DNA of 64,000 nt from an uncultured beta proteobacterium (GCA_963735025.1 CAVTJG010000009.1:202225-266224), one strand, 5' to 3'; counted from the first letter of the stretch, positions 28,797 through 53,872 are shown. Program-made: numbers and translations. The notes: generated by a model not told the origin, from the letters alone.

Positions 28797-29813
28797 ATGA
28801 AGAGGCTCGTGATGTTGGCCGGCACGGTGTCGCTGCTTCTCGCCGCAGCGCCGCAACCGGCCGCCGCGCAATCCACGCTCGACGCCGTCAAGGCGAAGGG
28901 GTACGTGCAATGCGGAGTCAACGTCGGTCTCGCCGGCTTCTCGCAGCCCGACTCGAAGGGCCAGTGGAAGGGGATCGACGTCGACCTGTGCCGTGCGGTT
29001 GCCGCAGCCGTGTTCGGCGACGCGACGAAGGTGCGGTACACGCCGCTCACCGCGCAACAGCGGTTCACCGCACTCCAGTCCGGCGAGGTCGACATCCTGT
29101 CGCGCAACACGACCTGGACGGCGACGCGCGATTCGAGCCTCGGGCTCAATTTCACGGGGGTGATCTACTACGACGGCCAGGGCTTCATGGTGCCCAAAAA
29201 GCTCAACGTGAAGAGCGCCAAGCAGCTGAATGGCGCGACCGTGTGCGTGCAGCCGGGCACCACGACAGAACTCAACCTTGCAGATTACTTTCGCGCCAAC
29301 AAGATGACTTTCAAGCCGGTGGTCATCGAGAAGCTCGAAGAGGTGCTCAACGCCTACTTCGCCGGACGTTGCGACGTCTACACGACCGACATCTCGGGAC
29401 TGGTGGCGGTACGAGCGTCGCGCGCACCGAACCCTGCCGACCACGTGATCCTTCCCGAAGTGATCTCGAAGGAGCCGCTCGGGCCGGTGGTGCGGCACGG
29501 CGACGACAAGTGGTTCGACATCGTCAAGTGGACGCTCTTTGCAATGATCGAGGCGGAGGAGCTGGGGCTCTCATCGAAAAGCATCGCGCAGAGCCTGTCC
29601 AGCGCCAATCCTTCGATCCAGCGCTTCGTGGGCGCGACCGGTGACATCGGCAAGATGCTCGGCCTGGACAATCGCTGGGCATTCAACGTCGTCCGGCAGG
29701 TCGGCAACTACGGCGAAGTCTTCGACGCAAACCTCAAGCCGCTCGGATTCGACCGCGGGATCAACAATCTCTGGACGAATGGTGGTCTGATGTACGCTCC
29801 ACCGATCCGGTAG
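28797..29813 (+). CDS. aapJ: General L-amino-acid ABC transporter periplasmic binding protein (AapJ/BztA type)
   Basis: MKRLVMLAGTVSLLLAAAPQPAAAQSTLDAVKAKGYVQCGVNVGLAGFSQPDSKGQWKGIDVDLCRAVAAAVFGD... Confidence 0.85.
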   Translation: MKRLVMLAGTVSLLLAAAPQPAAAQSTLDAVKAKGYVQCGVNVGLAGFSQPDSKGQWKGIDVDLCRAVAAAVFGDATKVRYTPLTAQQRFTALQSGEVDILSRNTTWTATRDSSLGLNFTGVIYYDGQGFMVPKKLNVKSAKQLNGATVCVQPGTTTELNLADYFRANKMTFKPVVIEKLEEVLNAYFAGRCDVYTTDISGLVAVRASRAPNPADHVILPEVISKEPLGPVVRHGDDKWFDIVKWTLFAMIEAEELGLSSKSIAQSLSSANPSIQRFVGATGDIGKMLGLDNRWAFNVVRQVGNYGEVFDANLKPLGFDRGINNLWTNGGLMYAPPIR

Positions 29814-29870
29814 CCGGCCGCGCGGTATCCTAACGCGAGCCGCGATGCGGCGCTCGGCGAGAGGGGGGAG

Positions 29871-31409
29871 ATGACGCAGCAGAGCGAGCAGATCGATCGC
29901 GGCGGCGGCCTGCGCGGCTTCGCGCTGCTGCTCGCGCTATCCGTGCTGCTCCTCGGGCTGGCGAGCTGGCTTGAGGGTAGCTCGGCATTGCGCCATCCGT
30001 TGCGCTGGCTCGCGACGCTCGACCAGTCCGCCGCACTCGCGGTGCTCATCGCCGCGGGCCAGGTCGTCGCGGGGATGCTCGCGATTCTGATCACCGTCGT
30101 CGCGATCGTGGTGCAGCTTGCCGCGACCCGCTACACGCATCGCGTCACCACGCTGTTCGTGCGCGACCGCGTCAACCAGGCAGTGATGACGCTATTCGTG
30201 CTCACGACGGCGCTCTGCATCTGGCTTGCGCTGGTGCTCACCGGGGAGGTGCACGACGCACCGATCGTTCCCCGCGGCGGCTTCCTCCTTGCCATGGGTC
30301 TGATGACCGCATGCGTGGTCGCGCTCGTCCCGTATTTCGGCTACGTGTTCCGCTTCGTCTCGCCGCTTGGCGTGATTCGCCGCATCCGGTCCGCCGCGCT
30401 GAACGAGGCGGAAAGCGCGGTAACGGGTGACCCGCATGCCGCGGAGCTCGCCGTGATCGAGAGCATCGAGGAGCTCGAGGACGTCGCGCGCGGCGCCATG
30501 AACAACTACGACCGCGCCATCGCAATGGCCGCCATCGAGGCGCTCGCGACGCTGCTCACGGACGTCGAGCGACTTCGGAGCACGCTGCCCGCGGAATGGT
30601 TTCGCGTCGACGAAGCCATCGCTCGCGACCCGGATTTCGTCTCGATGTCCAGGACTGCGCTCGACGAGGTTGCCCGCACGGGAAGCTGGTTCGAATCAAA
30701 GATTCTGCGCCAGTACCATGCGCTCTTCATCGATGCCGTCAATAGCGCGCGCGACGTGGCGGGCATGATCGCAATCCACACGCGCCGGCTGGGTGAGCAG
30801 AGCGGGGCCGGGCGACCGGAGCTCGTGGTGCTGTGCCAGCGCGCCTTCAACAGCTACCTGCGCGCGGCGATCAACGGGTCGGACGCGCGCACCGCCTATT
30901 ACGTGCTGCACCAGTACCGCATGTTCGGCGAGACGCTGCTTGCCCGCGGCGAGGAGCCGGCAGTGGTCGAGGTGGCGAGCCGCATCCGGCATTACGGCAG
31001 AGTGGCCAGGGCGAGCGGCCTCCCCTTCCTGCTCGAGGTCGCGGCCTACGACGTCGCCCAGCTCGTCGAGGTCGCCGTCGATAAGCCCGGCGTGCGCGAC
31101 GCGTTATTGAACTTGCTGCTCACGATGGATCAGCTGGGAGCGCAGAATCTGCCCGGGGTGCGGCGCGCCCAGGCGCAGCTCGCGACCTTCTTCCTCGTGC
31201 GCGGCGATACCGATACGGCGCGGCGCATCGCTGGCGACTTGGCGGGCGAGCGGCGCGAGCTGCTCGCGAGCATCCGCTTGGACATCGAGCGCGAGGTCTC
31301 GCCCCACTATTCCGAGATCGAGAATCGTGGCGCCAACTTCTCCTATCTTCCTCCCGAGCGTCGTGCGCAGCTCGACGCCCTCTACGCCATGCTGGGGGCT
31401 GCGGGATGA
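29871..31409 (+). CDS. Membrane protein, four N-terminal TM helices plus ~330-aa soluble domain (DUF2254-like)
   Basis: 512-aa ORF with SD GGGGGGAG. The hydrophobic helices lie in residues ~15-160. The family assignment is from memory only. Confidence 0.6.
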   Translation: MTQQSEQIDRGGGLRGFALLLALSVLLLGLASWLEGSSALRHPLRWLATLDQSAALAVLIAAGQVVAGMLAILITVVAIVVQLAATRYTHRVTTLFVRDRVNQAVMTLFVLTTALCIWLALVLTGEVHDAPIVPRGGFLLAMGLMTACVVALVPYFGYVFRFVSPLGVIRRIRSAALNEAESAVTGDPHAAELAVIESIEELEDVARGAMNNYDRAIAMAAIEALATLLTDVERLRSTLPAEWFRVDEAIARDPDFVSMSRTALDEVARTGSWFESKILRQYHALFIDAVNSARDVAGMIAIHTRRLGEQSGAGRPELVVLCQRAFNSYLRAAINGSDARTAYYVLHQYRMFGETLLARGEEPAVVEVASRIRHYGRVARASGLPFLLEVAAYDVAQLVEVAVDKPGVRDALLNLLLTMDQLGAQNLPGVRRAQAQLATFFLVRGDTDTARRIAGDLAGERRELLASIRLDIEREVSPHYSEIENRGANFSYLPPERRAQLDALYAMLGAAG

Positions 31410-31455
31410 ATCGGATCGCTCGATACGTGCGTCAACTCGTGGAGTAAGGTCGGTC

Positions 31456-31611
31456 ATGCCCGGCAAAGCGCTTACGCCCGTACAGATCGTCAATAAGCTG
31501 CAGCGCATCGCGCGCCTCACCGCGAGCGGCAAAATGCCGGCGCAGGCGTGCAAGCAGGCGGGCATCGACGAGCGGACCTACAAGCGCTGGCGCAAGGAGT
31601 ACGGCACGCTG
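31456..31611 (+). mobile_element. IS3-family OrfA-like helix-turn-helix segment forming the N-terminus of the GAF kinase ORF (IS remnant / domesticated HTH)
   Basis: MPGKALTPVQIVNKLQRIARLTASGKMPAQACKQAGIDERTYKRWRKEYGTL resembles the IS3 OrfA pattern (sPEQIixKLRexE...G...eaCRxxGisexTyYRWRKEYGGl). No OrfB/DDE transposase is present anywhere in the window. Confidence 0.45.
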
Positions 31612-31698
31612 GCGACGCGGCTCGCCAAGGCGAACGGCGGAAGCGCCCCCGGGGATCGCGTAACCGGCGACGCCGCTCTCGCCGCCGCCCGGGCGCAG

Positions 31699-34600
31699 CA
31701 GGCTGCGACCGCCGAGATCCTGCGCCTCATCAGCGACTCACCGACCGACCCGCAACCGATCTTCGATGCGATCGTGAAAAGCGCGGTGCGATTGTGCGGT
31801 GCCGTGTACAGCGCAGCGATGAGGGTGGAAAGCGGCCTGGTGCACCTCGTCGCCCAGCACGACTGGCCGGAAGAAGGCTGGGCGCTCGCGCGGCAGATAT
31901 TCCCGATGCCGCTCGATCGCGAACATCTCACTGCAGTTGCCATCCGGGAAAGCCGCGTCATCCACGTCGACCACCTGCAGGACAATCCCGATCTCCCCGT
32001 ATCGTCGCGCGAACTCGCGCGTGTCACCGGCTACCAGGCGCTTCTGGTCGTACCGATGATCCGGGGCTCGGAAGCGATCGGCGCGATCGCCGTGGCGCGG
32101 AAGACCGCGTTCACGGACGATCAGGTCGCGCTCCTCAAGTCCTTCGCCGACCAGGCGGTGATCGCCATCGAGAACACGCGCCTGTTCAACGAGACCCAGG
32201 AAGCGCTCGAGCGGCAGACCGCGACCGCCGAGATCCTGGAGGTCATCAGCCGGTCGCAGAGCGACCTGCAGCCGGTCTTCGACACGATCGCGGCGAGCTC
32301 GAAGCGGCTCTGTAGCGGCGATCAGGGCGTGGTCGTTCACCTTCGATGGCGAGCTGCTCCACATTGGCAGCTGTCGCGGCGCGTGAACGACTCCCGAAGA
32401 GCGAGAATAGCGCGCGACGATCATGGCCCGCGGCCGCGCCGACCGCGGCACCGTGGCAGGGCGAGCGGTCCTCACGCGCGCGACCGTCACAAGTCCCCGA
32501 CGTGCTCGAGGACCCGGAGTGCCAGCACGCGGGTGTTGCACAGGTCGGCGGCTGGCGCGGCATTGCCTCGGTCGCCGATGCTGCGCGAGGGAAACCTCAT
32601 CGGCGCGATCGTCGTTGCGCCGCCGAAGCCCGCGCCTTTCACCGATCACCAGGTCGCGCTGCTCAAGACCTTCGCCGACCAGGCGGTAATCGCGATCGAG
32701 AACGTGCGCCTGTTCAACGAGACCAAGGAGGCGCTCGAGCGGCAGACCGCGACCGCGGAGATGCTCAGCGTGATCGGAAGTTCGCCGACGGACACGCAGC
32801 CGGTGTTCGAGGCGATCGTGAACAGCGGGCTTGGGCTGTTCCCAGGCGCGATGATCACCGTCGCGCGTCCCGAAGGCGACCTTGTACGTGCAGCGGCGAT
32901 AGCGCACGACGACTCCGCGATGGTCGCAGGGTGGAGCGGAAAGGTTCACAACCCCGCTCTCCCGCGATCGTCTGCACGGCGCGGCGATTCTCGACGCCAT
33001 GCTTATCGACATTCCGGACGCGCGGGCCGAGGCAGACGGGCCTCTTGCGCCGGGCATTCGCAATTTTCTGTTGAGCGGCAATCGCGCGATCACGGTCATG
33101 CCGATGCTGCGTGGCAAGGACGCCATCGGCGTGATCAGCGTGACACGCGCTGTGCCCGGACTCCTGAGCGACAAGCAACTCTCGATCTTGCACACCTTCG
33201 CCGACCAGGCCGTGATCGCGATCGAGAACGTGCGCCTGTTCAACGAGACAAGAGAAGCGCTCGAGCAACAGACCGCAACCGCGGAAATACTCAAGGTCAT
33301 CAGCGAGTCGCCCACCGACGTGCAGCCGGTGTTCGACGCAATCGTGGCAAGTTGCACCCGCCTCCTTGCCTGCAACCATGCAACGCTGCGGCTGGTGAAA
33401 GGAGATCATGCCGAGTTCGCGGCGAGCAATTCGACGATCGGAGGGAAAACGGTCGTCGAATCTCCCATGTCGATCCACGACGACAGCATGCCCGTTTCGC
33501 ATGCGGTAGCGCGCCGGGAGGTGGTGCAGATTCCGGATACATCGGCGGAAGGCGTCTCCGTGCAGATGAAACAACGTGGCGAGCAGCGCGGCTTTCGCTC
33601 GCTCATGGTCGCGCCCCTGCTGCGGGACAACGATGTGATCGGCACGATCAATGTGCATCGCGCGACGCCCGGGCGCTTCACGGAAAAGGAAGTCGCGCTT
33701 CTCGAGACCTTCGCGAGCCAGGCGGTGATCGCGATCGCGAACGTGCGCCTCTTCAACGAGACCCGCGAGGCGCTCGAGCAGCAGAAGGCGTCGGGCGAAG
33801 TGCTGAGCGTGATCAGCAACTCGATCGCGGATGCGCAGCCGGTGTTCGAGAAGATCGTCGAGAGCTGCGAGCGACTGTTCCCCGGTGGCAAGATTGGGCT
33901 CAACCTTATCGGTCCGGATGGACTGGTGCATGCAGGCGCCTACGGAAACTTCCCCGGGGCGGCCAAGTTGAGGAAGGAGCACTTCCCTCACCCGGCCGCC
34001 GGGTCGGCTACCGGTGCTGCGATCGACGCGGGTGGGGTCATTCACTTTCCCGACGCGCTCGGCGATCCCGACGTCCCGCCATTCGCCCGGAGTGGAGCCG
34101 AGGCGGTGGGCTTTCGGGCGTTCATCGCGGCGCCGCTGCTGTCGGAGGGCCGTGGCCTCGGCGCGATCTTCGTCGGGCGTGGTGCGGTCGGTTCCTTCAC
34201 CGAAAAGGAGATCGCACTCCTCAGGACGTTCGCCGATCAGGCAGTGATCGCCATCCAGAACGCGCGCCTCTTCAATGAAACAAAGGAGGCACTCGAGCGG
34301 CAGACGGCGACGAGCGGCATTCTCGAAGTCATGAGCGGGTCCCCGACGGACGTTCAGCCCGTCTTCGACGCGATCGTAAAGAGCGGGGCGCGGTTGTTCA
34401 GTGGTGCCGGGGTGGCTATTGCGCTTCCCGATGCCGGCCAGGTGCGGCTCGCGTCGATCGCGGACGAAGACCCGGAACGATGCGCGAGATGGGCAGCGAG
34501 CTACCCGTTTCCTTTGACACGGGACTACATGCATGCGACGGCAATCCTGGACCGAAGAGTGATCGATGTACCGGACGCGCTCGACCCGCCCGCGCAGTGG

Positions 34601-36910
34601 GCGGCCGGAATCGAAAACTTCGTCCGCACCGGCTATCGCGCCATCACGATCATTCCGATGATGCGCGGCAATACCGACTTCGGCACGGTCAGCGTGGTGC
34701 GCATGGCGCCCGGACCGTTGACGGACAAGCAATACGCGATCCTGAAGACGTTCGCCGACCAGGCGGTGATCGCGATCGAGAACGTGCGCCTCTTCAACGA
34801 GACCAAGGAGGCGCTCGAGCAGCAACGCGCCTCGGGCGAGGTACTGAGCGCGATCAGCGAGTCGATCGCCGACACCGAGCCGGTGTTCGAGAAGATCCTC
34901 GAGAGCTGCGAGCGCCTGTTTGCGGTACGTCAGGTCGGAATCAACCGGGTCGGCGAGGACGGCAAGGTGCACCTCGCGGCCTTCCACGGGCCTGGACGCG
35001 AGATGCTCGATCGGATCTTCCCGCTCTCCCTCGAAGGGGATTCGGGCTCGAGCATCTGCCTGCGGGAACGGCGCGTGGTCCACTATCCGGATGCGCAAGA
35101 AGGCGCCGACGTGCCGTCGACGACGCGCCAGAGCTGCATTGCGACCGGCTTCCGCTCCATCCTCTTCGCGCCGATGCTCTGGGAGGGGCGAGGGATCGGC
35201 GTGCTGTTCATGGGCCGCGACCGGGTCGCTCCCTTCACCGAGAAGGAGATCGCTCAGTTCAAGACCTTCGCCGACCAGGCGGTCATCGCGATGCAGAACG
35301 CGCGCATGTTCAACGAGACCAGGGAGGCGCTCGAGCAGCAGACCGCGCTCAGCGAGATACTCGGCGTAATCTCGTCCTCGCCAACCGATGTCATACCCAT
35401 GTTGCACGCGGTCGCCGAGCGGGCGGGAAAATTGTGCGACGCCGACGTCTCGAACGTCCTGCTCGTGGAGGGCGAGGCGCAGCGTCTTGCCTCGAACTAC
35501 GTCAAGGACGGCGTTGCGAATCCGTTCGCCGGTCAGGGCCCAATGGTCCTTTCCCTCAGTCGCGGCTCGGTGTCGGGCCGCGCAATCATCGACCGCACTG
35601 CGGTGAACGTCCTCGACATGGGCGAGGCACCTGAGGATGAGTACCCGGTCGGCCGCGAGGTCTCGCAGCGGTTCGGCGTTCGAACCGTATTCGGAACCCC
35701 GCTGATGCGCGAAGGGCGTGCAATCGGCGCAATCGTCCTGGTCCGCATGCGAAAACAGGCATATTCGGACAAGCAAATCGCTCTGGTGCGGACCTTCGCC
35801 GACCAGGCGGCAATCGGCATCGCGAACGTGCGCCTGTTCAACGAGACCAAGGAGGCGCTCGACCAGCAGACCGCCTCGGCCGAGGTGCTGCGGGTAATCA
35901 GCAGCTCGCTCGCGGATGCCAAGCCGGTGTTCGAGATGATCCTGCAAAGCTGGAGCGGCCTGCTGGCGTGCCGGCACGACGGGGATCACGATAGCGGGCG
36001 AGGAGGGAAACGTCTTGAACCTTGGCGCATACCTCGGACCCGACGAAGAAGATGATGGAACGCATGTATCCCATGCCGCTCGAGGGTTCTGCCTCAGGAT
36101 TGGCGATTGTCGAACGCCGCGTGCTGCACTATCCGGATATCGACACGTGGGGCGAACGTGCCCGACCCTGTCCGCCGGGCCGCGAAAGTTACTGGCATTA
36201 CATCGTTCATCTTGTACGCCCTTGCTAGGCAAGGAGCGGGCGATCGGTACCATCTTCATGGGGCGCACTTAGTCGGCGCGTTCTCCGACAAGGAGATCGC
36301 GCTGCTCAGGACCTTCGCCGACCAGGCGGTCATCGCGATCGAGAACGCGCGCCTCTTCAAGGAGCTGGAGACGCGCACCGCCGAGCTCAGCCGCTCGGTC
36401 GAGCAGTTGACCGCGCTCAGTGAGGTCGGTCGCGCGGTCAGCGCGAGCCTTGACCTGGATACGGTTCTCACCACCATCGTGACCCAGGCAGTGCAGCTCT
36501 CCGGCCTCGACGGGGGCAACATCTACGAGTACGACGCGGAGCGGGAGGAGTTCGCGCTGCGGACCGCGCTTGGGGTGAATGCCCAGCTGGAGCAGCAGAT
36601 TCGGGAGACTCGGTTGCGCAAGGGCGAGGGCGCGATCGGCAGGGTCGCCGTGACGCTTGCGCCCGTGCAGTTCCCGGACATCCTCGCAGAGAGCAACTAC
36701 GACAGCCGCCTGCGCGAGAGCCTCGTCCATGCGGGCGCGCGCGCGGTGCTGGCTATTCCGCTCCTGCGCGAGGGCCAGCTCGTCGGGGGCCTCGTCGTGC
36801 TTCGCAACCAGCCGGGTGAGTTCGCGAAGAATGTCGTCGAGCTGCTGACCACATTCGCCGCCCAGTCGGCGCTGGCCATGCAGAACGCGCGCCTGTTCGC
36901 GGAGCTCGAG
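31699..36910 (+). repeat. Tandem array of ten GAF modules with a ~520-bp period (coding repeat)
   Basis: The linker core TTCGC(C/G)GA(C/G)CAGGCGG starts at 32143, 32671, 33197, 33710, 34229, 34751, 35267, 35795 and 36314 (spacings 513-528 bp). It is followed each time by a ...RLFNET.EALE.Q.A... helix. Confidence 0.85.
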
Positions 36911-36940
36911 CTGGCAAGCAAGCACAAGACCGAGTTCCTC

Positions 36941-36982
<42 letters not shown>

Positions 36983-37425
36983 ATCGGCTACAGCGAGATG
37001 CTGCAGGAGGACGCCGAGGACGCTCGGCACGGAGCCTTCGTGCCCGACCTGAAGAAGATCAACGCCGCGGGCCGGCACCTGCTGGAGCTGATCAACGACG
37101 TGCTGGACCTGTCCAAGATCGAGGCCGGCAAGATGGAGCTGCACCTCGAGGACTTCGGCGTCGCGGGCATGCTCGACGACATCGCCGCCGTCGATCCAGC
37201 CGCTGGTGGAGAAGAACGCGCAACCGCCTGGCGATACGCTGGGACGCCGCGCTCGGGCAGCCATGCACGCCGACCTCACCAAGGTCACGCCAGGTGCTGT
37301 TCAACCTGCTCAGCAACGCCTGCAAGTTCACCGAGAACGGCACGATCTCGCTCGGCGTGACGCGCGAAAGCGGGACGGACGGCGACTGGTGATGTTCGCG
37401 GTGCGCGACACCGGCATCGGCATGA

Positions 37426-37686
<261 letters not shown>

Positions 37687-38429
37687 TGATCGACGACGAC
37701 GCCGACGTCAGGGATCTGATGCAGCGCTTCTCGCCAAGGAAGGCTATCGCGTGGTGGTCACCGCAGCCGGCGGCGAGGAAGGCCTGCGGCTGGCCGAGAG
37801 CTGCGGCCGGACGCGATCACGCTGGACGTGATGATGCCGGGCATGGACGGCTGGGCGGTGCTGTCGGCGCTCAAGGCCGACGCGCGAACTGCGCGACATC
37901 CCGGTCGTCATGCTGACGATCATGGACAACAAGAACCTCGGCTACGCGCTCGGCGCCGCCGACTACCTGATCAAGCCCATCGACCGCGAGCGGCTCATCG
38001 GATGCCCTTGCGCAGTTCCGGCCGCGACCTGCCCGATCCTGGTCGTGGACGACGACGCGGCGCTGCGCGCGAGCTCTTGCGCCGCATCCTCGAGAAGGAC
38101 GGCTACACCGTGGTCGAAGCCGAGAACGGGCGCGAGGCGCTGGCGCGTGCTCGACGCAGGTCTCGCCGGGACTGATCCTGCTCGACCTGATGATGCCGGA
38201 GATGGACGGCTTCGAGCTCGTGGCTGAGCTGCGCGCGGCACGAGGCATGGCGGGCCATCCCGGTCATGGTCATCACGGCCAAGGAGCTGACGGCCGAGGA
38301 CCGGCGCAGGCTGAACGGATACGTCGAGCGGATCCTGCAGAAAGGGACTGCCATCGCGCGACGCGCTGCTGCGCGAGGTCGGCGATTCGTGGCAGCGCTC
38401 CATGGCCCATCCAAGGGAGCACGCAAGTC

Positions 38430-38806
38430 ATGACCAAGATCCTGCTCGTCGAGGACAACGAGATGAACCGCGACATGCTGTCGCGGCGCCTCGCCGCCGA
38501 GGGCTACGAGGTCGTCATGGCCATGGACGGCGAGCAGGGCGTGGCGATGGCCACGTCCGAACCCCCGCGCTCATCCTGATGGACATGAGCCTGCCCGGTA
38601 TCGACGGCTGGGAGGCCACGCGCCGGATCAAGGCGGAACCCGCCACCCGCGCCATTCCGGTCATCGCGCTGACCGCGCATGCGATGGAGGGCGACCGCGA
38701 GAAGGCGCTCGCGGCCGGCGTCGACGACTTCGACACCAAGCCCGTCGAGCTTGAGCGGCTGCTCGGCAAGATCGAAGCGCTGCTCGCGCGCAACGCCGCC
38801 TCCTGA
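38430..38806 (+). pseudogene. Single-domain response regulator (REC), one frameshift near 38565
   Basis: MTKILLVEDNEMNRDMLSRRLAAEGYEVVMAMDGEQGVAMATSE in one frame, then [74 protein letters not shown] in another. The ATG overlaps the kinase stop (ATGA). Confidence 0.65.
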
Positions 38807-38808
38807 AG

Positions 38809-40374
38809 ATGGATCGCGAGACGCTCGCCCAGCTGCGTCACGAGCTGCGCACGCCGCTGAATCACATCATCGGCTACACCGAGATGCTGATCGAGGACGG
38901 CGGGCCGCCGGAGCTCGCGCCTGCACTCCGCGCAGTGCTCGACGACGCGCAGGCACTGCTCGGTCTGATCAACGAGCTGCTCGGCCCGGCTGCTGCGGGC
39001 TCCCTCGAGTCCGCACAGCATCTCGCCGCGCAGCTCGGCGCACCCCTCGAGCGCATCCTCGATGCAAGCAAGGCCATCACGGCGAAGCTACTCGCAGCCG
39101 GCGCCGCAGAGGCGCACAAGGACGCGGATCGCATCCACGGCGCCGCCGATCACCTCGCCATGCTCGTCAAAGGCGGGCTCGCCCAGCGCGTGACCGAGCG
39201 CGCCGCCGCGAAGGCGACGCCGGAATTGCCGGCCGCCACCGTCCATGCAGCGAAATCGGGCGCCGGCGTCATCCTCGTGGTGGACGACAACGCGGAGAAC
39301 CGCGAGATGCTGGCGCGCCGGCTGGGGCGCGAGGGCTTCGAGGTCCTGCGGGCAGCTGGCGGCGCCGAAGCGCTCGCGACCCTCGAGAGCGCGGCCGTCG
39401 ATCTCGTGCTGCTCGACGTGATGATGCCGGACATCAACGGCTACGACGTTCTGAAGCGGCTCAAAGACGAATCGAGCGGCTGCGGCACATCCCCGTGCTC
39501 ATGATCTCGTCGCTCGACGAGGAAGAAAGCGTCGCGCGCTGCATCGAGCTCGGTGCCGAAGATTACCTGCCGAAGCCCTTCAGCCCGGTCATCCTGCGCG
39601 CCCGGGTGAGCGCCTGCCTCGAGCGGAAGCGTCTGCGCGATCAGGAGGTGCGCCACGCGGCCGAGCTCGAGGAGTGGAACCGGACGCTCGAGCAGCCGCG
39701 TGCAGGAAGGCGTGGCGCACGTCGAGAAGCTGGGCCGCCTCAAGCGCTTCTTCTCGCCGCAGCTCGCCGAGCTGATCGTGGCCGGCGGCGCCGACGACCC
39801 GCTGCGCACGCACCGCCGCCAGGTGACGGTCGTGTTCCTGGACCTGCGCGGCTTCACCGCGTTCGCCGAGACGGCCGAGCCCGAGGAGTCATGGGCGTGC
39901 TGCGCGAGTACCACGCCGCGATGGGCGAGCTGATCCTCGCGCACGAGGGCACGCTCGAGCGATTCACCGGCGACGGCATGATGATCTTCTTCAACGACCC
40001 GGTGGAAGTGCCGGACCATGCCGAGCGCGCGGTGCGCATGGCGCTGGCGATGCGCGACTGCGTGGCGAAGCTCGCCGCCGGGCTGGAAGAAGCAGGGCTG
40101 GGATCTCGCGCTCGGCGTGGGGATCGCGCAGGGCTACGCGACGATCGGCGCGATCGGCTTCGAGGGCCGGTGGGACTACGGCGCGATCGGCACGGTGACG
40201 AATCTCGCCGCGCGCCTGTGCGGCGAAGCAAAAGGCGGCCAGGTTCTCGTGTCGTCCCGCCTGGCGGGCGCGGTCGAGGACGTGGTCGAGACCGAAGAGG
40301 TCGGCTCCCTCACCCTCAAGGGACTCCATAAGCCTGTTCCCGCACTCAACGTGGTCGCGCTCAAATCCGGATGA
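38809..40374 (+). pseudogene. HisKA-only phosphotransfer domain - REC - class III adenylate/guanylate cyclase, four frameshifts as sequenced
   Basis: H-box [19 protein letters not shown] with no HATPase. REC shows [14 protein letters not shown]...[12 protein letters not shown]...YLPKPF. The cyclase motifs are [27 protein letters not shown] and [13 protein letters not shown]. Frame switches lie near 39468, 39698, 39890 and 40087. Confidence 0.75.
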
Positions 40375-41358
40375 GGCTTTCGGTCGGCGGTCCGAGGTTA
40401 CGCGCGATCGCGTACCAGACGACGGCGGTCGTTGCGGCTGTGCTCGTCGGCTGGTTCCTCATCCGGAACACGATCGCAAATCTCGAGGCGCGGCACATCG
40501 CAAGCGGATTCGGATTTCTCGCCCGCGAAGCGGGCTTCGAGATCGGCGAGACCTCGCTCATTCCCTACACCGCGGCCGATACCTACTTCCGCGCACTCAC
40601 GGTCGGTCTGGCCAACACGTTCCGCGTCGCGCTGGTCGGCATCGTGGTCGCGACCGTGCTGGGCACACTGATCGGCCTGGCGCGCCTTTCGCGCAACTGG
40701 CTGGTGGCGAAGCTCGCCGCCGGGTACGTCGAGTTCGTGCGCAACGTGCCGCTTCTGGTGCAGCTATTCCTCTGGTACGTCGTCATCACGGAGAACCTGC
40801 CCGGTCCGCGCGAGGCGCTCGAGCCCCTGCCAGGCGTCTTCCTCGCCAACCGCGGCATCTATTTCCCGGTGCCCACGTGGGACACCGCGCATCTCTGGAT
40901 GAGCGTTCCGCGGCTCGAGGGCTTCAATTTCGCTGGCGGAGGGGTGATCACGCCGGAGTTCGCCGCACTCACGTTCGGACTCATCCTATACACCGCGGCG
41001 TTCATCGCCGAGATCGTGCGCGCCGGCGTGCTCGCCATCCCACGCGGCCAGTTCGACGCCGCGTACGCGCTGGGATTGCGCCGCGGGCCCGCCATGCGGC
41101 TGGTGGTGCTGCCGCAGGCATTGCGCGTGATCGTGCCCCCGCTGACGAGTCAGTACCTCAATCTGGCCAAGAACAGTTCGCTCGCGGTGGCGATCGGGTA
41201 TCCCGGACCTCGTCTCGATCGCGAACACCGTGATGAACCAGACCGGCCAGGCGATCGAGGGCATCGCGATCATCATGGCGGTCTACCTGACGATCTCGCT
41301 CTCGATCTCGGTGTTCATGAACTGGTACAACGCACGCATCGCACTCACGGAAAGGTAG
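40371..41358 (+). pseudogene. aapQ: General L-amino-acid ABC transporter permease AapQ/BztB type, 1-bp frameshift near 41205
   Basis: MRLSVGGPRLRAIAYQ...NLEARHIASGFGFLAREAGFEIGE...LSRNWLVAKLAAGYVEFVRNVPLLVQLF... The C-terminal DLVSIANTVMNQTGQAIEGIAIIMAVYLTISLSISVFMNWYNARIALTER is in the next frame after cccGGacc. The ATG overlaps the cyclase stop. Confidence 0.8.
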
Positions 41359-41361
41359 CGA

Positions 41362-42432
41362 GTGAGAGCGATCTCCGCCTGGTCCTGGCTGCGAACGAAT
41401 CTCTTCTCGAGCTGGGCGAATTCTCTGCTGACCATCGCGGCACTGTGGCTGTTGTGGCGCGTGGTGCCGCCGTTCATCGACTGGGCGTTCCTGGACGCAG
41501 TCTGGGTCGCGCCAGACGCGCAAGCCTGCCGCGCAGCGGCCGGGTCGGGCGCGTGCTGGGCATTCATCGCCGAGAAGCACCGCTTCATCCTGTTCGGGAC
41601 CTATCCGTACGAGCAGCACTGGCGACCGGCGGCGGCGTGCGTGATCCTCGTCGCACTCTGGGTCGTGAGCGCGCTGCGCCGGTTCTGGAGCTGGCGGCTC
41701 GCGCCGCTCTGGGCGGCGGGCCTGGGCGCGGTCGGCGTGCTGATGTGGGGCGGCGTGCTCGGCCTGTCCTACGTGGAGAACGAGCGCTGGGGCGGTCTGA
41801 TCCTGACGCTGTTGCTGACGACCTTCGGCCTCGCGCTCGCGTTTCCGCTGTCGATCCTGCTCGCGCTCGGCAGGCGCTCCAGCATGCCGGTGATCCAGGG
41901 ACTGTGCGTCGGATTCATCGAGCTCGTCCGGGGCGTCCCGCTGATCTCGCTCCTTTTCATGGCCTCGGTGATGCTGCCGCTCTTCCTTCCGGAGGGCGTC
42001 ACGATCGACAAGCTACTGCGCGCCCAGATCGCGATGATCCTCTTCGCTGCCGCCTACCTCGCCGAGGTGGTGCGCGGCGGCCTGCAGGCGATCCCGCGCG
42101 GCCAGTACGACGCAGCCGACGCACTCGGGCTGACTTACTGGGGGAAGACCCTGCTCGTCGTGCTGCCGCAGGCGCTCCGGATCGCGATTCCGCCCACGGT
42201 CAACACGTTCATCGGTTTCTTCAAGGACACCTCGCTCGTGTTGATCATCGGACTGTTCGATCTGCTCTCGACGATCAAGGTGTCGCTTACCGAGCCGGCC
42301 TGGAGCGGCTTCGGCGTCGAGGCGTATCTTTTCGCAGCGCTCGTCTACTTCGCGTTCTGCTTCGCGATGTCGCGCTACAGCCAGAATCTCGAGCACACGC
42401 TCGCGCAGTCCGAAACGGGGCGGTGGCGCTGA
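41362..42432 (+). CDS. aapM: General L-amino-acid ABC transporter permease AapM/BztC type
   Basis: GTG start. MRAISAWSWLRTNLFSSWANSLLTI...ELVRGVPLISLLFMASVMLPLFLP...EVVRGGLQAIPRGQYDAADALGL. Confidence 0.85.
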   Translation: MRAISAWSWLRTNLFSSWANSLLTIAALWLLWRVVPPFIDWAFLDAVWVAPDAQACRAAAGSGACWAFIAEKHRFILFGTYPYEQHWRPAAACVILVALWVVSALRRFWSWRLAPLWAAGLGAVGVLMWGGVLGLSYVENERWGGLILTLLLTTFGLALAFPLSILLALGRRSSMPVIQGLCVGFIELVRGVPLISLLFMASVMLPLFLPEGVTIDKLLRAQIAMILFAAAYLAEVVRGGLQAIPRGQYDAADALGLTYWGKTLLVVLPQALRIAIPPTVNTFIGFFKDTSLVLIIGLFDLLSTIKVSLTEPAWSGFGVEAYLFAALVYFAFCFAMSRYSQNLEHTLAQSETGRWR

Positions 42433-42492
42433 ACACGTTGACGACGCTGCAAGAGCCCTCTCACCGCCCGCCCGCGCGCCTTCGTGCACGGA

Positions 42493-44358
42493 TCAGCAGT
42501 TCCGTGCCAGCGTGTCCAGAATCGCAAGCGGGTCCTGTCCGCGCGCCTCTGCGATCGCCTTGATTGCGGCCGCCTCGCCCACCTGTACCACCGCGCTCAC
42601 GGGAAAGTTTCCCGGGGTGTGCGGGAAAACCGATGCGTCGCTGACGCGGACGCCCCGGACGCCGATGACCTTCAGATCGCCATCGACCACTGCGTCCCGG
42701 TCGCTCCGCTTGCCCATCCTCGCCGTGCCATTGGCATGGTGGCCCCAAGTGTTGGACTCGATTGCGGTGCGGATTTCGGCGTCGGTCAGCACATCGGCGC
42801 CTGGCCAAGCTTCCCGATGCACAAGGCTGGCGTACGATTCGATGACCTCGCGCGCCGTCTTCACTCCGACGACGAGCGGGCGGCTGTCATTTTCACCCGG
42901 AGCGTCCTCCGAGTGGTACTTGAAGTTGATCTTCGGCTGCCCGAAGGGATCATGCGGGTCCAGCTTCACGTAGCCTTTCCTGTCGCCCTTGTTCTTGTAC
43001 AGGACCAGCCACGTAAGCTTGTTGGGATTCTTGGTGGCTTCCCTGAAAAAATCCGGAAAGTAACCCCGGAGGTCGGCCGGAAGGCAGAAAATGAAGAGAT
43101 CGGGCTCGCGAAGCCCCGCGATCGACTTCATCTGGAATCCGGCCACCACACCGTTGGTGGCATACACGCCGCGACCAGACTGAAGCCATTCGACGTAGTG
43201 CGGATCGGTCGGATCAACCTCGAATTTCACGCCTTCGAGCAGCGCGAAATTCTTCTTCATCTCGGTCACGACGCCGATTTCGTACCGGTCGTGCAGACCC
43301 TGACCCACGCCCGGCCGGTCAACGATCAGCTCCTTGATGCCTGCCTTCTTCAACTCGTCCACCGGGCCGATTCCGGAGCGCATGAGGATGGCCGGTGTCT
43401 CGAAGGCGCCGCCCGCAAGAAACACTTCCCGGCCTACGGGCTCCTCGTTCTCGGTGCCATCGGGAAGCGTGTACCGCACGCCTACGGCCTCCTGCTTCGC
43501 GTTGAAGACGATGCTTCTTACCCGCGCTCCCGTGCGAATGGTGAGATTGTCGGGATGGCTCGCCTGCACGGAGAGCAGGCGGTCCCGTACCCCACCGGCG
43601 CGGCGGCCCTGCCCGGTGACGGTCATCGGCGTGAGGACGAATCCCTCGGTGCGCTGGGTGCGATCGTCGTTGGGGTCGAACACGGTCAGCACGCGCATGA
43701 AAAGGTCGCGGAGACTACCGAGGCGCAGGGAAAAAAGGCCGGTCTTCAGCGCAATTCTCAGGATCTGCAGATCCTTGAGGACGAGTCCGAAACGGGCGCG
43801 CGTCGTCTCGATGTATCCATTGAAGCCGTGGCCGCGGCGGTTACGGAGCGCGGCGATGCCGAACGCCCGACCGAACTTGTCGAGCCACCTGAGCAGAGGA
43901 CGGTACTCGCATCGCTCGACGATCTGCAGGACCCGGCGCATGTTCCGCGCGGCCCAGAAACCGTCGCCCGTCGCCGTCGCGAAATTGTCCCAGTCGTCGT
44001 CGTCCACGCGGCACCAGACCAGGACGTTGACTTGTGTGCTGCCTCCGATTCGCCCGGTCCCGCGGGGATAGACGATGCCCGTTCTGTCCCCGCCCGTCTG
44101 GAACTTCCAGTCCCGCTTCGCAAGCTCGGGATCTTCGAAATGCTGGACGTAGTAGATTGTGGATGCGGCCGTATCCTCGGAGGCAGCGCCGGACAGCAGC
44201 GGAACGTCCACATACTTGCACGGGCCGTCGAGTCCCTGCTCGAGGACCAGCACCTTGAAGCCCGCTTCGGCGAGACGTGCAGCGGCGGGCGCGCCACCCG
44301 CCCCGGAGCCGACTACGATGTAGTCGAAAACCGCCTTGCCCGCGAGCGTGGGGTTCAT
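42493..44358 (-). CDS. GMC family FAD-dependent oxidoreductase
   Basis: FDYIVVGSGAGGAPAA (FAD GxGxxG) at the N-terminus. The C-terminal GMC signature region is GHHANGTARMG...VDGDLKVIGVRGVRVSDASVFP. Confidence 0.85.
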   Translation of the reverse strand: MNPTLAGKAVFDYIVVGSGAGGAPAAARLAEAGFKVLVLEQGLDGPCKYVDVPLLSGAASEDTAASTIYYVQHFEDPELAKRDWKFQTGGDRTGIVYPRGTGRIGGSTQVNVLVWCRVDDDDWDNFATATGDGFWAARNMRRVLQIVERCEYRPLLRWLDKFGRAFGIAALRNRRGHGFNGYIETTRARFGLVLKDLQILRIALKTGLFSLRLGSLRDLFMRVLTVFDPNDDRTQRTEGFVLTPMTVTGQGRRAGGVRDRLLSVQASHPDNLTIRTGARVRSIVFNAKQEAVGVRYTLPDGTENEEPVGREVFLAGGAFETPAILMRSGIGPVDELKKAGIKELIVDRPGVGQGLHDRYEIGVVTEMKKNFALLEGVKFEVDPTDPHYVEWLQSGRGVYATNGVVAGFQMKSIAGLREPDLFIFCLPADLRGYFPDFFREATKNPNKLTWLVLYKNKGDRKGYVKLDPHDPFGQPKINFKYHSEDAPGENDSRPLVVGVKTAREVIESYASLVHREAWPGADVLTDAEIRTAIESNTWGHHANGTARMGKRSDRDAVVDGDLKVIGVRGVRVSDASVFPHTPGNFPVSAVVQVGEAAAIKAIAEARGQDPLAILDTLARNC

Positions 44359-44491
44359 CGTGCGTTGGATATTGCGCTGGTACGACGCGGAGCGTCAATC
44401 GCCGCTCTGCGGGAGCTGAGCAGGCGACGAATGTCGGAGAGGAATCGAAGTGACATTCGATCGATCATCCGAGTCCGGGGCGTGATGGAGG

Positions 44492-45289
44492 TCATACTGC
44501 AAGACGCAACGCGGTGGTGTAGAGAACGATCGCGAACATCCGCCGCAGGACTGTGACCGGCAGCACATTCGTGAGCCGTGCGCCAACGGGCGCCATCAGC
44601 ATGCTCGGCAGAACGATTCCAATCACTGCAGGTAAGTATACGAAACCGAGAGTTAGCGCAGGTAGATCGTTGCGCAACATCCCGGACACGACGTAGCCGC
44701 GCGTGCCAGCGACGGCAATCGGAAAACCAAGCGCCGCCGCAGTACCGATGGACCGCTTGAGAGCGACACCGCACCAGGTCAACAACGGCACAAACAGTAT
44801 TGCGCCGCCAAAGCCGACCATTCCAGACAGGCCACCTACGAGAGCGCCCGCGAGCGTCAACGCACGCCTGGTGAGCGGTCGGGCGCGCACGCGTGGTTCG
44901 AGTCCGAGCAGCATCTGCGTGGCGATCACGGTGACGTACACGGCCAACCCGACACGCAGGGTGGCGACCGGGATCATGCTGGACGCAGCTGCGCCGGCGC
45001 CCGCGCCGACGACGATGCCGGGTGCAGCCCATCTGAACAGTCGCCACAGAACGGTCCCGCGGGCACTGTGAGCCCGTGCGCTCGAGGCGGATGTGAACAG
45101 AATGCATGCCATGGATGTGCCGAATGCGAGCGGCAGTGCGATCTCGGCCGGCAATCCGCGCGTGGCAAACACGTAGGCGAGCGCCGGCACGAGTATTAAT
45201 CCGCCGCCGATACCGAGCAGCCCGGCGAGGAAACCCGCCAGGCTGCCGAGTGTGGCGAACACCAATCTTATCGAGATCATCTCGTTCAC
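44492..45289 (-). CDS. TauE/SafE (DUF81) family sulfite/anion exporter
   Basis: GLLGIGGGLILVPAL and a second half GMVGFGGAILFVPLL. 265 aa, polytopic. The start is GTG or ATG. Confidence 0.8.
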   Translation of the reverse strand: MNEMISIRLVFATLGSLAGFLAGLLGIGGGLILVPALAYVFATRGLPAEIALPLAFGTSMACILFTSASSARAHSARGTVLWRLFRWAAPGIVVGAGAGAAASSMIPVATLRVGLAVYVTVIATQMLLGLEPRVRARPLTRRALTLAGALVGGLSGMVGFGGAILFVPLLTWCGVALKRSIGTAAALGFPIAVAGTRGYVVSGMLRNDLPALTLGFVYLPAVIGIVLPSMLMAPVGARLTNVLPVTVLRRMFAIVLYTTALRLAV

Positions 45290-45304
45290 GATCCATGCTC
45301 CGAA

Positions 45305-45571
45305 TTAGCGATCCTCGGGTTCGTCGTCCTCATCGGGCCAGCGCCGGGTATCGGCCTCCGCGTCGTCGCGCACATCGTCCGCGCGTTGAGACGCATCGTC
45401 CGCCGCTGGTGTCGGCAAGGCGACTTCCGGCGCCGGCGTCGACGTGACTTCCGCGACGGATACGTGCTGCGCCGTCGGAGATCCGGTCTGCGTTTCCTCC
45501 GCCATCGCTGGCTGCACCGAGAGAATTGCTGCGCAGACCACGGTCACGAACAGGTACTCGATGGTTTTCAT
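45305..45571 (-). CDS. Small secreted acidic protein (hypothetical)
   Basis: SD AAAGGA. Signal peptide MKTIEYLFVTVVCAAILSVQPAMA, then an acidic Pro/Ala/Asp-rich tail. High GC3. Confidence 0.5.
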   Translation of the reverse strand: MKTIEYLFVTVVCAAILSVQPAMAEETQTGSPTAQHVSVAEVTSTPAPEVALPTPAADDASQRADDVRDDAEADTRRWPDEDDEPEDR

Positions 45572-45600
45572 CTTCTTTATCCTTTGGTCGCGTATACGGG

Positions 45601-45933
45601 TTAGTACTCAACCGGCCGGTCCAATTCGTTCGGCCAGTCTTCGTCGCGGTAGATGACGTTGTCCGCCTTCCGCCAGTCGAATCCGAACTGCACCTCGCCT
45701 TCGCCGGCGCCCGCAACTGCGTTCGAATCCGAATCGGAATCGATTGCCGGGTATGTTCGTGCGCCAGCGGAAGCGACGTCGTCGCATCCGGCGAGCGCGG
45801 CGACGGCAAGTACGAGCGTGGCGACTGTTACGATCGCCGCGAGCTGACCGATCGCGCGAACTCGCAGCTCTCGCCAAGTCAGGTTCGGACGGCGGTCGAT
45901 CAGACGCGCTTGAAGCGGTGTGTTGGTATCCAT
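45601..45933 (-). CDS. Hypothetical lipoprotein
   Basis: ATG 45933 with SD AAGGAG. TM/signal LAAIVTVATLVLAVAALAGC (lipobox LAGC), then DSDSDSN and an acidic C-terminus. Confidence 0.5.
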   Translation of the reverse strand: MDTNTPLQARLIDRRPNLTWRELRVRAIGQLAAIVTVATLVLAVAALAGCDDVASAGARTYPAIDSDSDSNAVAGAGEGEVQFGFDWRKADNVIYRDEDWPNELDRPVEY

Positions 45934-46100
45934 GTGTTGCTCCTTGCGGTGCGCCGGGAGATCGTGCCGGCGCTGCACGACGGAGCGATCTCTTCTCGAT
46001 CCGTGCGTCGAAGTATGTGAATTCGAGCGCAGCAAGAAAATTGAGCAGGCGTACTAACCGCAATGCATTAGAAAGTGCGGGCCAAACGACTGGGCACGGC

Positions 46101-47006
46101 TCAGAGCGCGCCGAGCGCGAGCGACCAGACGGAGAGGGTGACAAACGACAGCGGAATGCCGATACCGACCATCAGCGTGACGAGCTCGGGGTCGAGCTTG
46201 TTCTCGATGGCGACGACGGCACCGCCGATCATCGGAGCCATGGCGGCCTCGAAGATGGTGATGCGAATCACCGGATCGTCCAGATCAGTGAGTGACGCCA
46301 GTACGATCAGCACGGCGATGGGGCCCGCCACGAGCTTGTAGGCGAGTCCGACCGTCAACGGTCGCCAGCGCTTGCGCAGCGCGCCCAGGCGCAGCTGGAA
46401 ACCGACCGAGAAGAGCGCCAGCGGAGCGAGCGTGTCGCCGAGTCGGGTGAATGTTCCCTCCAGCCAGTCGGGCAGCACCAGGGGCGCAGACGCGAGCGCG
46501 ACCAGCGCCGCGATGAACGGTGGAAACGTGCCGATCCGTCGCACGACGCTCCGGGCGGAAAGCGTCCCGGCGGAAAGTACGGCGGCGACGAGCAGGCCGA
46601 CCGTCGAGAGCACCACGTAGGTGCCGAGCTGATCGATGAGAATTCCCACCCCGAGATGCGCGCGTCCGAAGAAGCACTCGATCATCGGCAACCCGACGAA
46701 GGAAGTGTTGCCGAGCGCGCCGGTGAGAATCAATGCGCCGGTCGTCGCGCGCGACCAGCCCAGCATGCGGCGCGCCGCAAAGAAGAACGCGACGCCGAAA
46801 GCGAACAGGATCCACGCCATTGCGACCGGGAACGCCAGGCCGGCGTCGAGCGGCAGCTTGCGAAGGTGATGCAACGTGAGCGCCGGCAGTGCGACGTGGA
46901 TGATGAAGCCGTTCAGCGCAGCAGGCGTCGCCTCGGGTAGCCGGCCGCTCTTGCGCAGCACGATCCCGAGAGCGAAGCAGAGGAGCAGCAAAGCGAGGTT
47001 CTGCAC
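46101..47006 (-). CDS. AEC (auxin efflux carrier) family transporter; start uncertain (GTG 47006 up to ATG 47126)
   Basis: VQNLALLLLCFALGIVLRKSGRLPEATPAALNGFIIHVALPAL...GALGNTSFVGLPMIE... Confidence 0.75.
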   Translation of the reverse strand: MQNLALLLLCFALGIVLRKSGRLPEATPAALNGFIIHVALPALTLHHLRKLPLDAGLAFPVAMAWILFAFGVAFFFAARRMLGWSRATTGALILTGALGNTSFVGLPMIECFFGRAHLGVGILIDQLGTYVVLSTVGLLVAAVLSAGTLSARSVVRRIGTFPPFIAALVALASAPLVLPDWLEGTFTRLGDTLAPLALFSVGFQLRLGALRKRWRPLTVGLAYKLVAGPIAVLIVLASLTDLDDPVIRITIFEAAMAPMIGGAVVAIENKLDPELVTLMVGIGIPLSFVTLSVWSLALGAL

Positions 47007-47022
47007 GGCCGCGTCGCCAGGC

Positions 47023-47280
47023 TCAGCGATCGGCGCGCGGACGCAGCGCCACCCACGCAAACTCGACTGCGATCCAGGCGATCGGGAACATACCGACGAA
47101 CATCGCAAGCGGATCGTCGGACGCAAGCGCTGCGTTGAGAAAGTAGAGCGCTACCGCCACGGCGATGGCGACACGGACGATGCGCGGGACAGCGGAGACG
47201 AGGCGTTGCCGCAGCCGCGGCGCAACGTGCTCGTCCGCGTGAATGTCCGGCCGCTGCGACTGCGATAAGAAGTGTCCCAT
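47023..47280 (-). CDS. Small hypothetical membrane protein
   Basis: 85-aa ORF with high GC3 and two hydrophobic stretches (RIVRVAIAVAVALYFL, MFVGMFPIAWIAVEFAWVAL), immediately upstream of the AEC gene. No recognisable family. Confidence 0.35.
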   Translation of the reverse strand: MGHFLSQSQRPDIHADEHVAPRLRQRLVSAVPRIVRVAIAVAVALYFLNAALASDDPLAMFVGMFPIAWIAVEFAWVALRPRADR

Positions 47281-47492
47281 GATGTCCTCCCGATGATCGG
47301 CGCCGCGCCGCTGGCTTGCTGCGTGGCTGAGGACATTCTTCGCGCGAACGACGGCCTGGGAAATTGAGCGGACGCGCTAGCCGCTCCGGGTGAACTGCAG
47401 TTGTTGGCCGCGCCGCCGTCCCACCGTGACGGGCTAGCTCGGACGTACTACCGATTACGGGACAACTCGAGCGCTACGGAAGGTCCGATCAA

Positions 47493-47568
47493 GTCATCCC
47501 CGCGAACGCGGGGATCTAGCATGCCTTTCAAGCAACTCAGGCTGGATTCCCGCGTTCGCGGGAATGAC
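47493..47568. repeat. REP-like composite palindrome, copy C
   Basis: GTCATCCCCGCGaaCGCGGGGATC ... GGATTCCCGCGttCGCGGGAATGAC. Both hairpins are near-perfect. It is intergenic, upstream of the FAD oxidase stop. Confidence 0.8.
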
Positions 47569-47587
47569 GGGTTCTTGCGGACCTTCC

Positions 47588-49099: not shown

Positions 49100-49144
49100 A
49101 CTGGTTCTCCCTCTCGCTACCGGTAAGCCATTACCCTTGTGTAG

Positions 49145-51277: not shown

Positions 51278-51660
51278 TGGGTGGTTTCTCCGGCACGCCC
51301 GGGCAACGTCGGCCGACCCGGGACCGAACCGGAGGTGGATCGGAGCCTATGCCTTTCAGGGGCGCGATGCCATAGTACGAACGTTTAGAGGGGTCTCCAA
51401 GCAATGCCCGCCGCGGCGGCTTCGAGTGGCGAATTCCGCTTGCAGGGGAAGCCCCGATCGTACGAGCAAGAGGGAAAGCCCCCTTGTACCTTGTAAATCC
51501 CCTGTGTGCGTGCGCGGAGTCTTTCGACAAACGGTTAGGCGGCTAAGCGCCGGGACGTTCCAGGCCGGCCGGACCGCGCTGTCGCGTCTCGGACCGCGCG
51601 CGCGGTCGGGCGCGGCGCGCTAAGATCCGGCCGAACAACGACAACACCGGATGAGCGCGG

Positions 51661-52359: not shown

Positions 52360-52461
52360 CGTCTGTAACCGGCAGACAACGATCCTTCGCGCACCAAGCA
52401 GGGCGCGGATACTGCTCGAGGCTCAGCCTTCCGCCCGCGCATCCGATCCGCGCCCGCGCGT

Positions 52462-53820: not shown

Positions 53821-53872
53821 TCTGTCTTCTCCCCTCCAGATCGCGCTCGGCCGGAGCGCAGCGGTATGACGC

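Follow-up and report, generated by a model that had tools for sequence, protein, structure and literature searches.

The general amino acid transporters AapJQMP of Rhizobium leguminosarum and BztABCD of Rhodobacter capsulatus are encoded by contiguous four-gene operons, in which the gene for the cognate ATPase (AapP) accompanies those for the binding protein and the two permeases. We found a different form of this operon in a 64,000-nucleotide (nt) stretch of DNA from an uncultured beta proteobacterium (GCA_963735025.1, CAVTJG010000009.1:202225-266224), referred to here as the window, meaning the whole stretch analysed. Like the described transporters, the locus encodes an AapJ-type binding protein of 338 amino acids (aa) and two long permeases, AapQ and AapM, both of which have a BPD_transp_1/HEQRo_perm_3TM core (AapQ after removal of one base) and EAA-type motifs. 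AapM is 95% identical to a database homologue, and JGI names homologues at 83-95% identity general L-amino acid transport permease (aapM); NCBIfam holds no AapJ-specific model, and the best match to AapJ there falls below its cut-off. Unlike the described operons, the locus has a 10.5-kb signalling block between aapJ and aapQ, and no aapP adjoins aapM in the window or in the related loci L006 and L007. The AapQ of the clade formed by the window, L007 and L003 is also 56 residues, or two predicted transmembrane (TM) helices, shorter than the 384-aa form in L004, L006 and L009.

Pfam placement and mapping onto L007, a JGI metagenome contig, gave the order aapJ, DUF2254 gene, multi-GAF hybrid histidine kinase, single receiver (REC), HisKA-REC-cyclase, aapQ and aapM, followed by a convergent GMC (glucose-methanol-choline) oxidoreductase gene. 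A first-pass annotation, made from the sequence alone, had proposed this order and these coordinates, together with an ATGA overlap of the cyclase stop and the aapQ start (40371-40374), the convergent GMC gene, and a frameshift in aapQ, and we recovered each of these. It had also listed the kinase, REC and cyclase genes, which are present and in that order but are not intact in the window copy. Eight genes are co-oriented, with spacers of 0-57 nt or ATGA overlaps between them (the REC start overlaps the kinase stop in this way), and no convincing internal terminator was found within the operon. Co-transcription of cyclic nucleotide monophosphate (cNMP) signalling with amino acid uptake is thus plausible from the gene arrangement. 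The best explanation of the locus, and in our view a probable one, is a native, lineage-specific variant of the aap operon, produced by a single old insertion, followed by co-divergence with the transporter genes and by losses, with the indels of the window copy being errors.

The interrupted order is found intact elsewhere. L007 carries aapJ, DUF2254 (512 aa), kinase (2486 aa), REC (125 aa), cyclase (520 aa), aapQ (328 aa) and aapM (356 aa), all intact, then a convergent amidase gene and no aapP. L009, which is the same contig as L001 and comes from a Betaproteobacteria metagenome-assembled genome, and L010, a further assembly, have the same block order as L007 with a kinase of 2998-3001 aa. 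All block genes in L007 and L009/L010 are intact and under purifying selection. The cyclase of the window is 96% identical to that of L007 and 89% identical to those of L009/L010, and DUF2254 is 96.7% identical between the window and L007. In the block-less loci L003, L004/L005 and L006, aapJ, aapQ and aapM are adjacent, with AapM identities to the window of 95%, 87% and 83%, respectively, and these loci share with the window the upstream genes Peptidase_S15, ThiS-like, BNR, adh_short and alpha/beta hydrolase. The L003 AapJ, whose gene directly precedes aapQ-aapM, is 95.6% identical to that of the window, and aapJ orthologues also lie directly upstream of aapQM in L004, L006 and most metagenomic loci. 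This adjacency shows aapJ and aapQM to be parts of a single system, and the block to be inserted relative to the contiguous order. The first-pass annotation had weighed an insertion against a conserved native order and against flanking genes from unrelated ABC systems: the contiguous aapJQM of close relatives with the same upstream genes bears out the insertion, the intact interrupted order in L007 and L009/L010 also fits a native arrangement, and the unrelated-systems alternative falls because aapJ adjoins aapQM wherever the block is missing among these relatives.

Wider sampling placed the arrangement, as far as covered, in a few uncultured soil Burkholderiales. A genome scan with DUF2254 returned only two loci, including L002, with DUF2254 alone in an unrelated context, and a metagenome scan with AapQ returned mostly distant relatives (50-74% identity) that are informative for canonical order and not for the junctions. 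In related genomes, L011/L012 and L095 carry a circular permutation of the module, kinase-REC-cyclase-DUF2254, beside unrelated genes, and L093 and L094 carry one or more GAF kinases and a cyclase without DUF2254. The permuted module occupies L011 1-6613 and L095 1-5660, and both contigs begin inside the kinase. In the literature we found nothing on a transporter-embedded arrangement of this kind or on the function of DUF2254.

Both ends of the block preserve the aapQ start region. On the left, the window keeps the 31-nt aapJ-aapQ spacer (29814-29844), followed by ATGCGGCGCTCGGC at 29845-29858, a relic of the first 14 nt of aapQ, and then by the ribosome-binding stretch GAGAGGGGGGAG and the ATG of DUF2254; in block-less L006 the aapJ stop and a 31-nt spacer are followed by ATGCGGCTCTCGAC-CGGCGATCCG. 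The spacer and the 14 nt are kept in the window, L007 and L001, and the L001 relic encodes MRLST, the N-terminus of AapQ. In both carrier lineages the relic ATG opens a nine-codon mini open reading frame (mini-ORF) whose TGA overlaps the DUF2254 ATG as ATGA. On the right, a complete aapQ stands downstream of the cyclase gene. Compared with cyclase copies outside aap loci, which end in KAGA, the copies here lack the final one or two codons (ending in ALKSG or ALKA), and the aapQ start region supplies their stop (as ATGA in the window and as TGATG in L009). Since the breakpoints are identical in two carrier lineages, we infer a single event that placed the block 14 nt inside the aapQ reading frame and left the aapQ start in two copies. 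The insertion would be old, because between these lineages the block genes (DUF2254 88%, cyclase 89% aa identity) are as diverged as the aap genes (AapJ 88%, AapM 85%).

We built neighbour-joining trees of AapQ and AapM. Block-less L003 falls inside the clade of the carriers window and L007 (bootstrap 91-100%), block-less L004 is sister to that clade (98%), and the carrier L009 pairs with block-less L006 (~70%); carriers and non-carriers are therefore interleaved. The block appears to have co-diverged with aapJ, aapQ and aapM under purifying selection and to have been lost again in some relatives, and the block-less alleles are best explained by secondary loss or by replacement of the allele. 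As deletion scars, the longer spacers found in L003 and L004 are only suggestive. Other loci have different genes at this site: in L015 (1030-5000) three opposite-strand genes (TctC, a thiamine pyrophosphate enzyme and a PF04199 cyclase) lie between aapJ and aapQ as an independent insertion, and L054 has 2.6 kb of unannotated ORFs there, so the aapJ/aapQ spacer seems to be a recurrent site of insertion. A hairpin in the aapJ-distal part of the spacer pairs with the aapQ start codon or its relic (z ~ -2) in L001 (9945-10000) and L006 (8812-8856), and is weak in the window.

The window copy of this region is heavily disrupted. Against L007, its closest relative, we counted 66 indels at 31879-41206 (38 of +1, 16 of -1, seven of +2, and others), 63 of which break the frame within the 8.9 kb from 32334 to 41206 (kinase 55, REC 3, cyclase 4, aapQ 1), and the coding frame changes dozens of times across these four genes; the first-pass annotation had noticed only the extra G at 41206. 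Genuine pseudogenisation, in which the kinase, REC, cyclase and aapQ are inactivated and decaying while aapJ, DUF2254 and aapM survive, would fit the fact that the broken genes are contiguous and functionally linked among at least 15 neighbours that are each one full-length frame, and the absence of aapP from the locus could have relaxed selection on aapQ. Yet the indels come without the substitutions expected of decay. Across more than 3000 repaired codons not one substitution creates a stop, the indel-repaired proteins are 94-96% identical to those of L007, equal to or above the intact neighbours (the repaired cyclase translation is also 96% identical to P0121), and the start and stop codons of all four genes are retained at their orthologous positions. 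Mismatches to L007 by codon position are.025/.015/.108 in the broken cyclase and.023/.016/.107 in the intact DUF2254, and third positions dominate the differences in every gene compared. The indels are also densely clustered (32334-32625, 35953-36270 and 37192-38562, each a few hundred nt to 1.4 kb), with none at 29295-31878 or 41207-42432, and insertions outnumber deletions by ~2.5:1, mostly outside homopolymers (29 of the 38 single-base insertions have no identical neighbouring base), which is the opposite of natural bacterial decay. Because of the missing nonsense changes, the unchanged codon-position divergence, the clustered and mostly non-homopolymer insertions and the intact flanks, the 63 frame-breaking indels are very probably sequencing or assembly errors in a low-quality consensus, and we consider pseudogenisation unlikely. 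A tract of this kind would yield false pseudogene calls.

The origin of the block raises a related question, that of recent invasion by an insertion sequence (IS) or transposon carrying a signalling cassette. The duplicated target of about 14 nt that flanks the insert, the occurrence of the module in at least three genomic contexts with a circularly permuted order that is compatible with a circular intermediate, and the independent hit on the aapJ/aapQ spacer in L015 would all suit such an element, and the kinase N-terminus has a weak helix-turn-helix (HTH) likeness to IS630 and IS3 transposase N-termini. However, Pfam and profile searches of the window and its relatives found no transposase, integrase or DDE domain in the block, and no terminal inverted or other terminal repeats were found at its ends, where the only repeats detected were the GAF array and paralogous domains; the 14-nt duplication is not diagnostic of an insertion sequence, and the cyclase-DUF2254 junctions of L011 and L095 have no similarity to the duplicated aapQ sequence. 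The HTH occupies the first ~50 kinase residues in L007, L009 and L010 (31456-31620 in the window), inside the block instead of at its edge, scores far under the cut-offs (HTH_23 E 1.4e-4; IS630 25 bits against 100; IS3 21 against 160), and has third-position-biased substitutions that indicate purifying selection. Recent foreign acquisition was rejected on composition, as GC, GC3 (third-position GC) and codon usage of the block match those of the flanks (r ~0.9), and the equal divergence of block and flanks between lineages points to an old insertion, which leaves a recent mobile element very improbable. The first-pass annotation had proposed such a cassette invasion, citing an IS3-like HTH and the frameshifted aapQ and suggesting a comparison of composition. 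As history the invasion stands, given the contiguous relatives and the relic aapQ start, but its mobile-element and decay arguments do not: the HTH is a conserved kinase N-terminus, the composition carries no foreign signature, and the aapQ frameshift is one of 63 in an error-like tract. That the transporter and signalling genes are not truly adjacent, and were joined by a chimeric assembly, might be supposed from the repetitive GAF array and the error-rich tract, which make the region hard to assemble. We rejected this possibility and give it almost no weight, as three assemblies made independently in different projects (JGI for L007 and L010, NCBI for L009) share the same junctions at both ends.

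The proteins of the block suggest a signalling relay. The L007 kinase contains HisKA, HATPase_c and two REC domains, HisKA and GAF are recognised by Pfam in the window fragments, and hydropathy gave no convincing TM segment. GAF modules repeat with a period of ~520 nt, with ~10 in the window (31700-36900), 11 in L007 (2164-9624) and ~14 in L009 (628-9624), and this variation among close relatives points to unequal recombination, or to assembly collapse, in the array. For a soluble multi-GAF kinase, a conserved HTH of ~50 aa at the N-terminus is unusual. The cyclase protein begins with a HisKA/DHp domain with the H-box HELRTPL and no ATPase domain, followed by a receiver and a class III cyclase (Guanylate_cyc PF00211, E 9.6e-21 in L007), and phospho-acceptor His boxes and receiver Asp motifs are present. 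Its catalytic fold is closest to Pseudomonas aeruginosa CyaB (3r5g, E 1e-33), and alignment with it places the metal-binding Asp in FlD and GDG and the transition-state Asn and Arg in NLAARL. It resembles the receiver-regulated class III cyclases CyaB, Spirulina CyaC (1wc1) and Synechocystis Cya2 (2w01) in these residues and in having the receiver N-terminal to the cyclase, and differs from them in the DHp domain without ATPase ahead of the receiver. In class III cyclases, Lys with Asp or Thr specifies ATP and Glu with Cys or Gly specifies GTP; here the substrate-specifying positions are Arg (leRFtGD) and Gly (dYGaiG; window 39900-40374), in contrast to Lys/Thr in CyaB and Glu/Gly in Cya2. DUF2254 has 4-5 N-terminal TM helices and an all-alpha solenoid (AlphaFold model, pLDDT 84, and hydropathy), and the model had no fold match in the PDB better than E 0.014, with generic alpha-solenoids only.

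Under the native-operon interpretation, we propose that a four-gene module (a DUF2254 anchored alpha-solenoid, a soluble HTH/10-14xGAF hybrid kinase, a single receiver, and a DHp-receiver-class III cyclase protein) is embedded in the aap operon and that a single transcript from the aapJ promoter would span all eight genes. The ATGA overlaps would couple translation from the relic aapQ mini-ORF to DUF2254, from the kinase to REC, and from the cyclase to aapQ. Phosphate may pass from the kinase His to a kinase receiver Asp, then to the DHp His and finally the receiver Asp of the cyclase protein, whose phosphorylation would switch on cNMP synthesis, and DUF2254 may hold the relay at the membrane as a tether or scaffold. 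Co-transcription, relay order and the DUF2254 role are all suggested by domain content and gene arrangement; in a single transcription unit, the conditions that induce amino acid uptake would also express the phosphorelay. Such a pathway would resemble the His-Asp-His-Asp phosphorelays of ArcB, EvgS and CckA-ChpT-CtrA in its hybrid kinase with receivers, its distinct DHp module with a His, placed before the output receiver, and its extra single-domain receiver, which could be a sink or a connector. In CckA-ChpT-CtrA a DHp-like protein is the phosphotransferase; here, unlike in those relays, the phosphotransfer His domain is fused to the output protein, and the predicted sensor is soluble, with 10-14 GAF domains in a row and an HTH at the N-terminus.

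Several points weigh against this interpretation. Sigma-70 and terminator scans are uninformative in DNA this rich in GC (65-69% in the window, with a strong third-position GC signal), and yielded no promoters and terminators at chance level. The explanation of the indels as errors stays inferential, and the tract falls on four genes that are linked in function, as decay would also predict. For the six loci considered, one gain and three losses is favoured only by parsimony, an exchange of alleles through homologous recombination would produce an identical pattern, and the longer spacers of L003 and L004 resemble deletion scars only loosely. The product of the cyclase is not predictable because of the Arg/Gly pair at the substrate-specifying positions.

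The locus can also be compared with trigger transporters such as PstSCAB-PhoU-PhoR, DctA-DcuS and BceAB-BceS, in which transporter and signalling genes are likewise physically, and probably transcriptionally, linked. In those cases, however, the signalling genes flank the operon and do not split it, and here the linkage is one of genes, with a cyclic nucleotide in place of a transcription factor as the predicted output. A transporter-derived sensor, in which AapJ and AapQM signal periplasmic amino acids through DUF2254 to the multi-GAF kinase and on to cNMP synthesis, draws on the loss of the adjacent ATPase gene and of two AapQ TM helices in the clade of the window and L007; we regard it as improbable. 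If true, it would be an ABC-importer 'transceptor' hard-wired to a second-messenger output.

The missing ATPase gene appears to have a history of its own. As the first-pass annotation had claimed for the region after aapM, no GlnQ/AapP-type ATPase or remnant was found, and this holds across the 64 kb of the window by a motif scan and by tblastn searches using two AapP orthologues; the window encodes ABC ATPases of just two kinds, LivG/F-like (11.4-12.9 kb) and NitT/TauT-like (62.4-63.1 kb), with at most 36% identity. The canonical J-Q-M-P order prevails in most of 80 metagenomic aapQ loci, and L009 has a GlnQ-type aapP directly after aapM. In L004 an inserted P-type ATPase gene separates aapM from an aapP orthologue, 89.7% identical, 2.8 kb downstream. 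There is no aapP nearby in block-less L006 or in L007, nor an adjacent one in several closer betaproteobacterial loci (L015, L019, L021, L022 and L049). Because the carrier L009 keeps aapP, L004 has it displaced and block-less L006 lacks an adjacent copy, the loss of aapP is a rearrangement separate from the block, in a stretch downstream of aapM that is plastic. AapQ and AapM keep EAA-type motifs and evolve under purifying selection, so an unlinked ATPase presumably works with them. Between aapM and the amidase gene (42433-53881) the window has 11.4 kb of sequence that L007 lacks, at the position of aapP in L009. This segment and a second one absent from L007 (55700-58850) encode a GMC oxidoreductase, a Mem_trans protein, a FAD_binding_4 oxidase, a PAS hybrid kinase (49145-51277, minus strand), a LuxR-type regulator (51661-52359) and a xanthine/uracil permease followed by CoA-ligase-like and AllG genes.

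Table 1. Features of the split aap locus in the window; boundaries of the kinase, REC and cyclase genes are taken from the intact orthologue L007.
Feature	Position	Strand	Basis
aapJ-type periplasmic amino acid binding protein, 338 aa, intact	28797..29813	+	Pfam SBP_bac_3
Left junction: spacer, aapQ relic, DUF2254 ribosome-binding stretch	29814..29870	+	alignment with L006, L007, L001
DUF2254 membrane protein, 512 aa, intact	29871..31409	+	Pfam PF10011
Soluble hybrid histidine kinase: HTH-like N-terminus, ~10 GAF, HisKA, HATPase_c, 2 REC; 55 frame-disrupting indels	31456..38433	+	
Single-domain response regulator REC, 125 aa in relatives; 3 frame-breaking indels	38430..38806	+	
HisKA (DHp-only)-REC-class III nucleotide cyclase, 520 aa in relatives; 4 frame-breaking indels	38809..40374	+	
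aapQ permease, 328-aa short form; extra G at 41206 shifts frame	40371..41358	+	
aapM permease, 356 aa, intact	41362..42432	+	Pfam BPD_transp_1
GMC oxidoreductase, convergent to aapM	42493..44358	-	
Indel-dense tract, first to last uncompensated indel against L007	32334..41206	.	
~11.4 kb without counterpart in L007, between aapM and convergent amidase gene	42433..53881	.	

Elsewhere in the window, a segment that is not in L001 (17995-21669) holds an argininosuccinate-lyase-like gene (18559-20046) and a major facilitator superfamily transporter gene (20226-21485). A gene with a TIR_2 (ThsB-like) domain (25904-26974, minus strand) deviates in codon usage (GC3 0.75, r 0.73); the window and L004 (<70% identity) have this gene, L001, L003 and L006 do not, and it may be a variable defence gene. 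Rfam and tRNA scans over the window gave no matches, and the AapJ and DUF2254 proteins of the window had no exact-sequence match in the collection searched.

All components of this locus come from known families, and what is new is their embedding in a transporter operon with precise, translationally coupled junctions. The arrangement is real but only moderately unusual, because it is old and intact in relatives and the broken frames of the window look like sequencing errors. It provides a first genomic context for this DUF2254 subfamily, as a membrane anchor beside a giant soluble GAF kinase, and the missing ATPase gene emerges as a recurrent, independent feature of the betaproteobacterial aap lineage. 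If the eight genes are co-expressed, the locus would be a natural case of uptake genes and a cyclic-nucleotide phosphorelay held in one transcription and translation unit, for which the presence and absence alleles of close relatives could act as natural controls.

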